From contig JBDZWC010000027.1 in assembly GCA_040256005.1 (NCBI GenBank), positions 4,175 to 28,988 of the forward strand: a stretch of 24,814 nucleotides of DNA. The letters are read 5' to 3'. Source of the DNA: Deinococcaceae bacterium (lineage in GTDB: Bacteria; Deinococcota; Deinococci; Deinococcales; Trueperaceae). The notes below the pieces were generated by a model. It had not been told where the DNA came from. It made no database searches and was given only the letters and a program-made list of their open reading frames with translations. The position numbers and the translations under genes were made by a program. Shown here in pieces: positions 14,043 through 18,195 of this stretch; position 1 is the first letter of the stretch; each line of letters begins with the position of its first letter.

Positions 14043-14072
14043 AGGTTACCGCGAGCGTGGTGGACGTATACT
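14043..14072. promoter_or_regulatory. Divergent -10 boxes for ubiX (TAACCT, - strand) and the pspC-like gene (TATACT, + strand)
   Basis: AGGTTA at 14043-14048 is 6 nt from the ubiX GTG. TATACT at 14067-14072 is 9 nt before ATG 14082. Neither gene has an SD. Confidence 0.6.
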
Positions 14073-14081
14073 CGCCGCGCG

Positions 14082-14351
14082 ATGGCGCTTGTCGACGAGA
14101 ACCTCGACGCATCGAACGCAGCGCGGCTGCGCCCCGGGCCCGACGGTCACTTCGTCCCCATCGGCCCGCGCCTGACGCGGGCGCGACACGGCGGCGTGGT
14201 GACGGGTCTCTGCGCCGGGATCGCGAACCTGATCGGCGCCAGGGTCTCTACGGTGCGGGCGGTGTTCGTCGCCGGCGGAGTGGTGACCTTGGGCACGCTC
14301 GCGCTCGCCTACCTCGGGCTCAGCGCCATGGTGCCGGCTTCCTCTGACTGA
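14082..14351 (+). CDS. PspC-domain small membrane protein
   Basis: RLTRARHGGVVTGLCAGIANLIG..VSTVRAVFV...LAYLGLSAMVP matches the PspC pattern (RLxRsxxxxxIxGVCxGLA). 89 aa from ATG 14082. Confidence 0.75.
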   Translation: MALVDENLDASNAARLRPGPDGHFVPIGPRLTRARHGGVVTGLCAGIANLIGARVSTVRAVFVAGGVVTLGTLALAYLGLSAMVPASSD

Positions 14352-14395
14352 CCCTCACGTCACCAGGCTTCCGACTGACCCTCACATCACCAGGC
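14346..14395. repeat. Tandem direct repeat, 23 nt x2 (1 mismatch, 27-nt period), at a convergent gene junction
   Basis: GACTGACCCTCACGTCACCAGGC (14346-14368) and GACTGACCCTCACATCACCAGGC (14373-14395). Confidence 0.9.
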
Positions 14396-16031
14396 GGATG
14401 GGTGCGTCGAGCAGCTCGGCGACCCGGCCGAGGAGCCGAGCCCCCTGTTCGGCCGGCAGGTCTCCGGTCAGCGTGAGCGTGCTGCGGTACCCGCCCCGCT
14501 GGTTGTCGTAGAGCATGCGGCCGAGGCTCACCACCGGAAGGTCGACGTCCAGGACGACCTCGTCGAGGTCCAGGCTGCTCAGGTCGGCCACGACGAGCCC
14601 CGCTTCGTCCTCTTCCTGGCCGGGGCCGCTCAGCGCGCCGACGAGCTCGGCGAACGGTCGACCGGCCGCGTCATCGACCCGGCGCAGCGTGAGCCCGCCG
14701 TCGAAGGTGGCCAGCGCGACCTGGCCGCGGCCCACGCCCTGGTCGCGGGCCGCCTTGGCGACCGCCCGCAGCACGAACGGCCCTGCGCCCAGCGGCTCGT
14801 CGTGGCCCAGCTCCTGGGAGACCGAGAGCTGTGCTCCCGCCAACGCCGTCACGTCCACGTGCCGACGCAGCACCGTGCCGGTGCGGGCCAGCGGGATACC
14901 CGCCAAGCTCGCCGCCTCGCCCGTGGGCTCGGAGAGCTCGGCGTCGGCAGCCGTGGCCTGACTCCAGGTCGGCTCTGCCTCCGGCTGGTCCCAGCCTGAG
15001 GAAGACGCCACCGCCTGTCCTCCGGCGACCTCCTCGGCCGTTCCCGTGGCGACGTCCGCTCGCTCGTGTTCCGCCGCGGAAACGTCCGCCGGCTCTCCTT
15101 CTGTCTCGCCTGAAGCCCACGGGTCCGCTGCCGTCGTCGCGGCTTCCGTGTCGTCCATGCCCGCGGCCCAGACGTCTGGCTCTGCGGTCCCTCGATCCAC
15201 TTGCTCGGCGGTCCCTCGATCCGCGCTCGCGCCGTGCGACCAAGGGTCCTGTGTGTCTGCCTCTTCTGCCCCATCCTGGTCCCTGACCCATGGGTCGTCA
15301 TCCACGCTCGCCGTGACGGAGTCGGCGAAGAGGTCCGTCGCGGCTTCCGAGGACCCCTGAGGCTCGCCCCAGATATCCGGAGCGTCGTCCTGCGCAGCGT
15401 GCTCGTGGCCGCCCAAGGAGATGCCCTCGCCCCACTGCGCACCGGTGAACTCCTCGGTATCGCCGGTGGCGGAACGGCTGAAAGCGTCCTCGTCGGCCTG
15501 TCCCACCGAAGCGCCGAAGGCGTCCAGCGCCTGGATGTCGTCCTCGTCGCCCAGCAGCCCGGCATCGTCACCGGACACCAGCAGGTCCTCGAGCTCGTCG
15601 CCACCCACGGCTCCCGCGGGCTCACCGGCCGGCTCGTCCTCCAGCGGCTGCGCCGCGGCGACCGGCTCGTCGTCGAACAGGAACACGTCCTCATCGACAG
15701 CGGCGGTCGAGGGGGTAACCGTGACCTCTTCCGACGGGGCGGGGTCGTCCCTCACCGCGCTGCCGATCTCCTGCCTCAGCTCTCCCAAGGTGGTGGCCTG
15801 ACCGGCCTGGCGCAACGCGGGGTCCTGGTCGGGCCAGGCCTCCATGCCATCGGGCAGAGGCTCGGGCGTGGGGTCCAAGGCCTCTTCGCCCGCCATCACA
15901 CGCGCCAGGTAGTCGAGGACGTCGCGTTCGACGATCCTGCCGCCCTCGCCCGTGCCATCCAGGCCCCGCCAGTCGACGTTGTTCTGCTCGGCCAGCCGTC
16001 GCGCCAGCGCGGTGATGTCGGGCTCGCTCAC
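14382..16031 (-). CDS. E3-binding-domain protein: N-terminal peripheral subunit-binding domain, long acidic low-complexity linker, degenerate 2-oxoacid dehydrogenase E2 core domain
   Basis: ITALARRLAEQNNVDWRGLDGTGEGGRIVERDV (PSBD). C-terminal VDVTAL..PFVLRAVAKA..GARLLGRVAELLDAPIRL resembles the E2 core but lacks DHRxxDG. SD AGGAGG at 16039-16044. Confidence 0.8.
   Translation of the reverse strand: MSEPDITALARRLAEQNNVDWRGLDGTGEGGRIVERDVLDYLARVMAGEEALDPTPEPLPDGMEAWPDQDPALRQAGQATTLGELRQEIGSAVRDDPAPSEEVTVTPSTAAVDEDVFLFDDEPVAAAQPLEDEPAGEPAGAVGGDELEDLLVSGDDAGLLGDEDDIQALDAFGASVGQADEDAFSRSATGDTEEFTGAQWGEGISLGGHEHAAQDDAPDIWGEPQGSSEAATDLFADSVTASVDDDPWVRDQDGAEEADTQDPWSHGASADRGTAEQVDRGTAEPDVWAAGMDDTEAATTAADPWASGETEGEPADVSAAEHERADVATGTAEEVAGGQAVASSSGWDQPEAEPTWSQATAADAELSEPTGEAASLAGIPLARTGTVLRRHVDVTALAGAQLSVSQELGHDEPLGAGPFVLRAVAKAARDQGVGRGQVALATFDGGLTLRRVDDAAGRPFAELVGALSGPGQEEDEAGLVVADLSSLDLDEVVLDVDLPVVSLGRMLYDNQRGGYRSTLTLTGDLPAEQGARLLGRVAELLDAPIRLVM
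15184..15222. repeat. In-frame intragenic duplication (15-nt identity, 24-nt period) encoding DRGTAE twice
   Basis: GCGGTCCCTCGATCC at 15184-15198 and 15208-15222. Confidence 0.85.
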
Positions 16032-16087: not shown

Positions 16088-16093
16088 AGTATA
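16088..16093 (-). promoter_or_regulatory. -10 box (TATACT) upstream of the E3-binding protein gene
   Basis: AGTATA on the + strand at 16088-16093, about 55 nt upstream of the GTG start. Weak -35. Confidence 0.5.
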
Positions 16094-16239
16094 CAAGGCC
16101 GATACTCGGTGTCCGGGAGGGCCGGCGTAAGCGACAAATCCCACTCGCCTCACCGCGTGCTTCAGCCGCTCGTTGAGACGCGGTCCATGCCCGGGCCCGC
16201 TGCCCACGACACGATGAGCGGAGGTAACCGAAGGACCTC

Positions 16240-17535
16240 TCAGGGCCGCCAGGCCTGGAAGAAGACGCCGTCGATGTAGGTCTGCAGTAGCGCGTCGGAA
16301 CCGTACACGGGCACCGACGTCGAGGCGACCTCACCGGGATCCATCGTCTGGTCGAAGACCGTGCGTTCGCCGCGCTCGTCGCTGACGATCAGCTGCAGCC
16401 GGTACGGCTCCTCCAGCAGGCGCCTGACGCCCATGAAGGTGGGGTCGAAGGTGAACGGGATCGTGCGACTGCCGTCGCCGGCAACGATCGAAGGTCCGCC
16501 GCCGCCCGCCGAGTCGTCGCCCCCCGCCCGGCCCGGTGTCAGGTCGTCCGCCCCGTTCCCGGGTCCCGGCAGTCCCAGGTCGGGGAACACCAGTGGCGCC
16601 GAGGGCTCGCCGTTGATCGTCAGCAGCACCGGGGTGCCGGGAAGCGTGTAGCCCGTGGGCTGCACGTCGATGACGCCAGCCGGCCTGGCCGGGTCGTCGA
16701 CGAACGTGATCGGCCCCATCTGGAGCTGGGCGGCGCGCAGGGCCAGCTGGGCCCGCCACTGCGGCATGCCCATGACGTCGGGTACCTGCACGACGTTGCG
16801 CGACGACAGCGCGTAGTTGACGACCACCGGCGTGCTCAGGACGACCTCGGTGCCCGCCGGTGGCCAGACGGACACCACGTCACCGGCCTGGGTGAACGAG
16901 ACGGTGCTCGGCACGGTCTCGACGCGTCCGAACCCCAGCTCCTCGAGACGCCTCACCGCCTCTTCCAGCGGCATCCCGGCCAGTTCCGGTACCGCGACCT
17001 TGGGTAGCTGGCGACCGCTGCTAACGGTGATCTGCAGCTCCTCCCCGGAGGCGAGCTGAGCGCCGCCTGCCGGTGACTGACCGATGACGGTGCCGATGGG
17101 CCGGTCGTTCGGCTCGTAGACCGTCGTGGCCAGCGGGAGGTTGAGGTCCCTGACCAGCTGCTTGGCGTCAGACTCCCTCATGCCGGTGAGGTCCGGCACC
17201 CTCTCGGCGGCACCCGTCGTGTTGACGCCGAGGTGGATCGTGCGACCGCGCTTGACGCTCGCGCCAGCGGGAGGCGCCTGGCTGGTGACCGCATCCGGCT
17301 CCGCGCCGGCGACGTGCTCGACGAAGGTGACGGGCTCGAGGCCCATACGTCGCAGCACCTGGGCCGCCTCGTCGTGCCGCATGCCCACCACCTCGGGTAG
17401 ACGCACCTCGGCGACGGTGAAGTAGTCCCTGACGCTGAGAGCTGTGTAGACGATGGCGCCCACGAGGATCGCCCCGGCCACCGCCAGCCAGGTGAGCCCC
17501 GTCCTGCGCGCGTTGCGAGCGTCCGTAACAGACAC
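16240..17535 (-). CDS. Membrane-anchored protein with four PASTA domains, no kinase or PBP domain
   Basis: Single TM (LTWLAVAGAILVGAIVYTALSV). Repeats begin LPEVVGM, VPDLTGM, VPELAGM and VPDVMGM. Gly/Pro linker and a beta-rich C-terminal domain follow. Confidence 0.88.
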   Translation of the reverse strand: MSVTDARNARRTGLTWLAVAGAILVGAIVYTALSVRDYFTVAEVRLPEVVGMRHDEAAQVLRRMGLEPVTFVEHVAGAEPDAVTSQAPPAGASVKRGRTIHLGVNTTGAAERVPDLTGMRESDAKQLVRDLNLPLATTVYEPNDRPIGTVIGQSPAGGAQLASGEELQITVSSGRQLPKVAVPELAGMPLEEAVRRLEELGFGRVETVPSTVSFTQAGDVVSVWPPAGTEVVLSTPVVVNYALSSRNVVQVPDVMGMPQWRAQLALRAAQLQMGPITFVDDPARPAGVIDVQPTGYTLPGTPVLLTINGEPSAPLVFPDLGLPGPGNGADDLTPGRAGGDDSAGGGGPSIVAGDGSRTIPFTFDPTFMGVRRLLEEPYRLQLIVSDERGERTVFDQTMDPGEVASTSVPVYGSDALLQTYIDGVFFQAWRP

Positions 17536-17583: not shown

Positions 17584-18195
17584 GTGAACCGGGCCCTCAT
17601 GTTCCCGCCGTCTACCGTGTCGCATCTCGGCGCAGAGGCGATGCATGGCGAGCTTGCCGACCTGTTGGCGCTCGAGCGCAGCGGCATGGCCCTGGGTCTG
17701 GTGGCGCTGCCCGCCGCCGTGGAGGACAGCCTCTACCGCTTCAACAACCTGCCGGCTCGGCTGGCCGCGCTGTACGCGGGGCTCGACCCCTTCGATCCCG
17801 ACGAGGACCTGCTCGAGGAGGCCGAGGAGAGCGCCGTGAGGCTGGTGGACCAGGCACACCAACTAGACGAGGTCATCGACGCCGTCTACGAGGCCCTGGC
17901 AGGTCTCCCGGCCGAGCTCGTCGTCAGGAGGCCCGGCGAACCAGGCGGCCTCGAGGTAGCCGGCAGGCGCGGCGCGTTGCTGGCTCTCAAGCGGTTGGCG
18001 CAGGGCGACTGGTCGGCCCAGGCCGTCATGGCCAGAGTGACCCGCACCGCCAGCGTCGCGCTGGAGGCCCGCGAGGTGATCGTGCATGCGTCGGGCTCGA
18101 CGCACGACGCCGCGCTGTCGGCCCGTGCCGCGCAGGTCCTCGGGCGTCAGGTGGACGTAGCGGGTTGGCAGGGTTCGGTCACACGGGTGACGTGA
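17584..18195 (+). CDS. Hypothetical protein resembling a degenerate PEP synthase/PPDK N-terminal subdomain
   Basis: By-eye similarity: YRFNNLPARLAALYAGLD...LVVRR...LEVAGRRGALLALKRLAQGDWSAQAVMAR...VIVH. The SSATAEDLPxASFAG loop is absent. Confidence 0.6.
   Translation: MNRALMFPPSTVSHLGAEAMHGELADLLALERSGMALGLVALPAAVEDSLYRFNNLPARLAALYAGLDPFDPDEDLLEEAEESAVRLVDQAHQLDEVIDAVYEALAGLPAELVVRRPGEPGGLEVAGRRGALLALKRLAQGDWSAQAVMARVTRTASVALEAREVIVHASGSTHDAALSARAAQVLGRQVDVAGWQGSVTRVT

Follow-up and report, generated by a model that had tools for sequence, protein, structure and literature searches.

What might a bacterium do with a protein that has the fold of an E2 acyltransferase of the 2-oxoacid dehydrogenase complexes, and apparently none of its chemistry? 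The question is raised by a 549-amino-acid (aa) open reading frame (ORF) in the window, the whole 24,814-nucleotide (nt) stretch of contig JBDZWC010000027.1 of a Deinococcaceae bacterium (Trueperaceae) that we analysed. A first-pass annotation, made from the letters alone, had read this ORF as a catalytically dead, lipoyl-less E2 paralogue that tethers or sequesters E1 and E3, in the manner of the eukaryotic E3-binding protein (E3BP, protein X), or else forms a multivalent condensate or polar hub. We found that it represents a real and conserved family of bacterial pseudo-E2s, spread through the phylum Deinococcota, encoded apart from dehydrogenase operons and so far undescribed in the literature searched. 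The gene and its parts are as follows.

14382..16031, minus strand: 549-aa pseudo-E2 gene (peripheral subunit-binding domain (PSBD) module, acidic disordered linker, dead E2-core fold)
15828..16031, minus strand: N-terminal module, aa 1-68 (PF02817 match, alignment, residue counts, structural model)
14919..15827, minus strand: acidic linker, aa 69-371 (composition, motif count, structural model)
14385..14918, minus strand: dead E2-core-like domain, aa 372-549 (profile alignment, AlphaFold model, Foldseek, VIA-align)

A dead E2 core

Taken alone, the C-terminus had no Pfam match and no NCBIfam match at 1e-10, and a single-sequence search of PDB was discarded, as it returned designed repeat proteins and nothing real. 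PF00198 was matched by only 4 of 76 homologous C-domains (best E 1.3e-4). The relationship emerged from profiles: a phylum-wide alignment of these 76 C-domains matched 15 true E2 cores in hhalign with a probability of 94.2 and an E value of 1.1e-7 over 150 columns, as against 0.41 for the reversed alignment and 0.008 or more in ten of ten block shuffles. The AlphaFold model of the domain was confident (predicted local distance difference test score, pLDDT, 94.4; predicted template modelling score, pTM, 0.90). Foldseek searches with this model gave only E2 or E3BP cores among the matches listed (best E 3.8e-11), and VIA-align scored E2 cores at Z 19.0-17.1 compared with 13.3 for chloramphenicol acetyltransferase (CAT); E. 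coli E2 scored Z 19.0, and human E2 (Z 18.1) superposed with a root-mean-square deviation of 2.7 over 168 residues. These results bear out the E2-core-like C-terminus, of the CAT/E2 fold, that the first-pass annotation had proposed.

A His and a Ser/Thr are catalytic in E2, and helix H1 helps trimer formation. In the hhalign alignment VVADLS lies column for column with TITNIG, which places Ala482 at the catalytic Ser/Thr; 93% of the 76 C-domains are hydrophobic or small apolar in this column. Likewise, LTLTGD---LPAEQGARLL aligns with LSLSFDHRLVDGAEAAMFT, so that HRL is deleted after Asp524. The DHR motif was found in 0/76 homologous C-domains, and a His anywhere in that segment in 4/76. Both replacements are exactly those first read from the letters, and together with the fold matches they bear out the catalytically dead E2 paralogue. 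The reduction extends further: the match begins at E2 profile position 33, leaving helix H1 and the N-terminal arm missing, the AlphaFold models have no helix ahead of the first strand, and several loops are shorter than in E2. A C-terminal P-x-x-L-x-x motif is retained (P invariant, L 99%), as are polar residues R18, R19, R51, D119, E120 and R134 of the domain (75-91%). By alignment and predicted structure, the C-terminal domain is a catalytically dead E2 core. Lacking the lipoyl domain, the catalytic His, the catalytic Ser/Thr and helix H1, the protein falls outside the active E2s, whose core fold it has.

No lipoyl domain and a long acidic linker

The ORF begins with GTG, directly preceded by AGGAGG, and an in-frame stop lies 16 codons upstream; there is therefore no hidden lipoyl domain ahead of the start. 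PF00364 (lipoyl domain) gave no Pfam match in the window protein, and the lipoyl-type motif [ET][TS]DK[AVT] occurred in 0/65 full-length homologues, as the first-pass annotation had it.

The AlphaFold model of the full-length protein, made with these 65 homologues, contained two confident domains (1-50 and 381-549; pTM 0.44) joined by a region, 105-369, with pLDDT mostly below 50 and no secondary structure. This low-confidence joining region and the pTM argue that no fixed packing is predicted between the two domains. The linker had been estimated at over 300 aa and rich in acidic residues; measured from residue 51 to residue 371 it spans 321 aa (A 17.8, D 13.7, E 11.5 and G 10.3%) with a net charge of -73. 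Apart from a short helix (82-93) and an acidic-aromatic motif, DEDVFLFDDE, it is predicted to be disordered. Across the family the linker ranges from 110 to 915 aa and is poor in K and R throughout. The acidic-aromatic motif recurs in 65 linkers out of 79, where shuffled sequences would lead one to expect 11.8; the pattern was picked after the sequences had been seen.

Two further features of linkers were noted. Those of five Deinococcus loci (L140, L118, L119, L130 and L136) share a conserved GLG(S/G)LLS(R/Q)L stretch with the potential to fold as an amphipathic helix, and locus L077 (4974-8483) encodes a 1170-aa version whose linker, of about 915 aa, is 38% D+E.

The PSBD module

The N-terminal PSBD noted in the first pass was recovered by Pfam (PF02817, aa 9-39, E 6.7e-10, above the curated cut-off), and phmmer matched solved PSBDs (best E 3.8e-6). 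The model has helices at 8-16 and 35-46, followed by a Pro-rich tail ending at W66. Among 92 distinct N-terminal sequences from selected loci, kin included, E15, W21, E35, D37, L42, M46 and G48 are invariant. In mean column identity the module reaches 64% and the dead domain 37%, which makes the module the likely binding determinant.

Position 11, the basic residue of helix 1, is R or K in 90/92 modules. It maps to residue 136 of G. stearothermophilus E2 in file numbering (query 10-43 = 3duf_I 135-168), where the Arg is, we take it, the main E3 contact. Helix 2 carries L39 (D+2) in 89/92 and L42 (D+5) in 92/92, and G48 follows it in 92/92; this extended hydrophobic helix with its terminal Gly is similar to the motifs by which PMC10156792 tells the PSBDs of E3BP from those of E2. 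A second basic residue, beside Gly31, is Arg in 11/11 true E2 PSBDs recovered, and Arg or Lys in 49/92 modules overall. The module therefore keeps one canonical contact and loses another in whole families: the description 'intact-looking' holds for the window protein, with the qualification that many family members lack one canonical basic residue.

Distribution and descent

The C-domain profile matched 274 of 301 Deinococcota genomes (238 of 260 of high quality; G251 enters the 301-genome tallies only), with a single match in all but ten; G204, G278 and G291 have three each. Among 1.84 billion representative proteins, 366 contained the C-domain at E <= 0.001, and all named matches to the N-module were from Deinococcota in the best 120 of 807. 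In a quick tree of 75 C-domains, host-family labels changed five times (minimum 4, shuffled mean 33.5); the tree thus tracks host families, consistent with vertical descent. The ORF is open, with its invariant residues, in five families. Close homologues bear Trueperaceae labels, which fits the lineage of the window genome.

Orthologues include TTHA1891/TT_C1530 of T. thermophilus (BAD71714.1), AAF09723.1 of D. radiodurans and ADD26889.1 of M. ruber, labelled only 'E3 binding domain-containing protein' or similar. Such labels cover the PSBD alone; in the window protein the dead E2 domain is missed by Pfam and NCBIfam, and no function is assigned. PMC13140390 lists TT_C1530/TTHA1891 as a PSBD protein beside uvrB, persistent in Thermaceae. 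We found no description of the family in the literature, in a search that lay outside most subscription journals and supplements; proteomics tables may mention it. RNA contigs of T. thermophilus span the gene, level and strand not being shown by contigs. In the transposon insertion sequencing (Tn-seq) of T. thermophilus given in PMC13140390, TTHA1891 is 'Intermediate' (mean z -0.12), outside the insertion-poor genes, which is uninformative because the screen failed to separate essential genes.

The ESM Atlas contained mostly Pseudomonadota clusters (149 and 62 members) in which PF02817 is present and PF00198 scarce or absent, at scores of 0.82-0.87. These are possibly a parallel PSBD plus degenerate core architecture; with scores below 0.9 they are leads only.

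The module with other C-termini

In genera g2 and g5, which include Truepera radiovictrix, the C-domain was found in 0/3 and 0/6 genomes, respectively, while the N-module and the E2s are kept. The 13 variants inspected, from g2, g5 and the second copies of g10, have the N-module followed by a heptad-rich region and a basic-aromatic tail. This coiled-coil form is the only one found in g2 and g5; G184 and G147 have both forms. Two other fusions were seen among second copies.

L087, L089-L092, L173-L175, L211, L216-L218, L220: coiled-coil form, tail K/R-PWWK-x-W/F-G or RRGLFRR
L167:5324-6169, plus strand: N-module with signal peptidase I (TIGR02227), second copy
L168:5032-6288, plus strand: N-module with Pro-rich KxPEPVQP repeats and a C-terminal transmembrane helix, second copy

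As the N-module is joined to varied C-termini, the C-terminal part looks like an exchangeable anchor. Judged by composition, the variant tails probably bind membranes, and such tails may leave room for a role in localisation. Stand-alone copies of the module, 46-49 aa from matched start to stop, occur in two f5 genomes (L224, L225).

The likely partner

True E2 cores were present in 300 of the 301 genomes, the sole exception being G196. In carriers with a single E2, this was of the TTHA0232/E2b type in 4/4 checked (63-72% identity), accompanied by one E3 above the cut-off (4/4) and one E1-alpha match. The E2b complex as a general partner, a candidate that came from single-E2 lineages and from G122, G155 and G187, was rejected, as E2b-less carriers exist. 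Indeed, E2b is absent from 22/301 genomes (15/260 of high quality), and at least 10 of these 15 keep the dead domain; two E2b-less carriers assembled as one contig each, G089 and G128, retain the same E3 type. Since some carriers lack E2b and others have E2b only, no E2 type is common to all.

E3 was present in each carrier checked, that is, the window genome, the four single-E2 carriers, G089 and G128; the survey covered those seven, and AceE was sought in the window genome only. E3 is thus suggested as the partner because it occurs in every carrier checked while E2 types vary, and E1 tethering is disfavoured because no E1 type appears common to all carriers. We infer E3 as the partner, in preference to E1 or to any one type of E2 core. 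Of the link to E1 and E3 made in the first pass, the part on E3 gains indirect support, from these carriers and from genome G196 (below), where the pseudo-E2 gene has decayed and E2 and E3 are missing; the part on E1 is disfavoured.

The window genome has three PSBD matches besides the pseudo-E2: E2b, E2p and a lipoyl-bearing gene at the end of contig C194, which we take as the 5' half of E2o. Its second E3 gene (L177:4118-5509) stands alone between leuS and argJ-like genes.

The exceptional genome G196 had no E2 core and no E3, the single match being MerA. The E1-E2-E3 operon that lies 3' of groESL-hxlR in G025 and G043 is missing from the syntenic site on a continuous contig. The G196 orthologue still adjoins uvrB, with a LysM/NlpC gene on its other side; a stop interrupts its PSBD, and it contains other stops and frame changes. 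In 68 kb it is the only broken sense-strand gene among 38; of 49 blastx rows, 15 were flagged, comprising 11 antisense shadow frames, 3 stops 5' of the start codon and the pseudo-E2 itself. A lipA match was found neither in G196 nor in the window's own genome (G000), and because of the latter its absence from G196 was not used as evidence.

A proposed E3 adaptor and its alternatives

We tentatively favour, at a little under an even chance, a non-catalytic adaptor in which an anchor domain keeps E3 on a long tether. The PSBD module would bind the dimer of E3 (dihydrolipoamide dehydrogenase), the long acidic disordered linker would give reach, and the dead E2-fold domain would be a self-associating or localising anchor, replaceable by a coiled coil with a membrane tail. 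E3 would be pooled, positioned or rationed among the systems it serves (the three 2-oxoacid dehydrogenase complexes and glycine cleavage); making good an absent E3 site would not be the function.

Several observations weigh against this adaptor. All three host E2s carry a PSBD of their own, and dehydrogenase genes adjoin the pseudo-E2 in none of the loci examined. Within the module, Arg or Lys beside Gly31 is present in 42/46 Trueperaceae, in 0/18 Thermus/Meiothermus/f4 and in 7/28 Deinococcus/f5 sequences, and according to PMC10156792 every eukaryotic PSBD has an Arg beside the loop Gly. At position 15 all 92 modules have Glu and true E2s mostly Arg (82%), the module is neutral to acidic in charge, and the invariant W21, E35 and M46 could suit a different partner. 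The gene was not found, with E2 and E3 kept, in g48 (3/3), G237, G174, G122, G155 and G187, so such losses happen regardless of E3 loss. Finally, the co-loss in G196 is a single event in an assembly that is 91% complete, and G196 loci (L200, L201, L207, L208) include a gcvT-H-Pa-Pb operon that is intact, as well as an E1 alpha/beta pair on its own; E3 could therefore lie in unassembled DNA, and the alternatives for this genome are a gap in the assembly and an unusual glycine cleavage system that works without E3. The charge reversal at position 15 had also been considered as a disproof of E3 binding, and was dropped because C. glutamicum AceF has Glu there as well. A set of 30 genomes chosen beforehand for weak or odd matches included 15 in which the module was not found; the eight of these that were checked keep their E2s.

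Some of these points would fit a repurposed PSBD whose partner lies outside 2-oxoacid metabolism, in a scaffold at the membrane or pole to which acidic linker motifs recruit clients. The invariant non-canonical residues, the second Arg lost in whole families, the repeated fusion of the module to membrane-type C-termini, the want of linkage to dehydrogenase genes with a PASTA-repeat protein gene upstream in Trueperaceae, and the excess of acidic-aromatic motifs (65/79 against 11.8) all speak for it. The gene's decay in the single genome that lacks both E2 and E3, and the helix-1 basic residue kept in 90/92 modules, point the other way, and we consider it unlikely. A true E3BP-like subunit, in which the dead domain would join an E2 core, within it or on its surface, and the PSBD would recruit additional E3 to that complex, is distinctly less probable. 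Its fold is the same as in E2 and E3BP cores and the C-terminal P-x-x-L motif is kept, the C-terminal end of E2 being what makes trimer-trimer contacts. Weak profile matches in PDB include three protein X/E3BP chains (E 0.18-0.27, not significant); 4 of 15 high-quality E2b-less genomes (14 listed) have no gene or a broken one; the dead domain scores best against E2b, a result confounded by profile depth (11 vs 5 vs 4); and a fungal E3BP with a reduced fold binds a core, according to PMC10156792. Against this, no single E2 type is found in all carriers, g2 and g5 keep their E2s without the dead domain, helix H1 and the N-terminal arm are absent, and a linker of 110-915 aa is far beyond need. 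The E3BP-like reading of the first pass thus stands as regards an inactive E2 paralogue, and integration into an E2 core is weakened because H1 is missing, E2b presence varies and the dead core can be replaced by a coiled coil.

A regulatory decoy or sensor, whose dead domain would bind CoA, acyl-CoA or lipoyl domains and so switch the sequestration of E3 or E1, might explain the conserved polar residues (75-91%) and the gene's position, divergent from an amino-acid dehydrogenase gene, in several Deinococcus. Yet the active site of E2 is a channel formed between subunits and the elements that would form it are deleted, the conserved residues may be structural and the neighbour varies by family, so that we think this very improbable. 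That the gene is a functionless remnant of an E2 duplication is hardly credible: it was not found in several lineages and was not insertion-poor in the T. thermophilus Tn-seq of PMC13140390, a screen non-discriminating for essential genes, but the open ORF with invariant residues in five families and 274/301 genomes, and a tree that tracks host families (5 label changes against 33.5 shuffled), effectively refute it by conservation.

Among known systems, active E2 acyltransferases (PF00198, PF02817 and PF00364) share with the pseudo-E2 the PSBD, the core fold and the order PSBD, linker, core; the pseudo-E2 differs in lacking the lipoyl domain, the DHR His, the catalytic Ser/Thr and helix H1, in several shortened loops, in its acidic or Pro-rich linker of 110-915 aa and in its stand-alone gene. 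With eukaryotic E3BP/protein X (human PDHX; fungal PX, PDB 7r5m, 8ohs, 6h60) it shares an inactive E2 paralogue with a PSBD, a reduced core fold (as in fungi) and a similar hydrophobic motif in PSBD helix 2. E3BP retains the topology of E2, lipoyl domain included, and is a eukaryotic gene according to PMC10156792, whereas the pseudo-E2 is bacterial, lipoyl-less and, in some lineages, free to dispense with its dead domain; the two probably arose independently. We also propose a parallel with MRPS36/KGD4 of eukaryotic OGDH, described in PMC9974300 as a lipoyl-less, non-catalytic adaptor that recruits E3. There, MRPS36 is eukaryote-only and replaces the PSBD missing from E2o, whereas the three host E2s here have PSBDs and the pseudo-E2 itself has a real PSBD and an E2 fold. 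We propose that the pseudo-E2 works most like E3BP or MRPS36, yet it belongs with neither, nor with active E2.

That it is an independent bacterial counterpart of E3BP of a new design, a lipoyl-less pseudo-E2 outside the core with E3 leashed at a swappable anchor, is possible, if doubtful. PMC10156792 and PMC9974300 treat inactive E2 paralogues and E3 adaptors as belonging to eukaryotes. If true, a metabolic enzyme shared between complexes would have a factor of its own for positioning or rationing it, inherited from the ancestor of the phylum and as yet uncharacterised in T. thermophilus and D. radiodurans; the E2 scaffold would have been recruited convergently for a pseudoenzyme, and the sharing of E3 among bacterial complexes would gain an unrecognised component. 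The orthologues occur in these two genetic and structural model organisms, whose E3-PSBD complexes have been solved (PDB 2eq7 and 2eq8, both among the phmmer matches), which makes the claim testable.

Neighbouring features

The gene's neighbours differ between groups: a PASTA protein and ubiX-ispD-ispE in many Trueperaceae; M29 aminopeptidase, uvrB and slpA in Thermus relatives; and an amino-acid dehydrogenase (the pseudo-E2 gene being divergent from it), udk and purA in several Deinococcus. A promoter pattern upstream of the window gene was found once, against 0.1 expected from shuffles. In the window the adjacent features are as follows.

16088..16115, minus strand: sigma-70-like promoter match CGGACA-16-TATACT, 57 nt 5' of the start (consensus match only)
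16240-17535, minus strand: protein of four PASTA repeats that has no kinase domain, found 5' of the pseudo-E2 in many Trueperaceae loci
17584-18195, plus strand: divergent 203-aa ORF with no Pfam match, upstream of the pseudo-E2 in many Trueperaceae loci
14057-14347, plus strand: convergent 96-aa ORF, PspC-like by eye, with no Pfam match and no tblastn match in related loci

At 14346-14395 a 23-nt direct repeat with one mismatch, its copies 27 nt apart, overlaps the pseudo-E2 stop codon as well as the point where the small convergent ORF ends, and resembles a short tandem duplication of the last pseudo-E2 codons.

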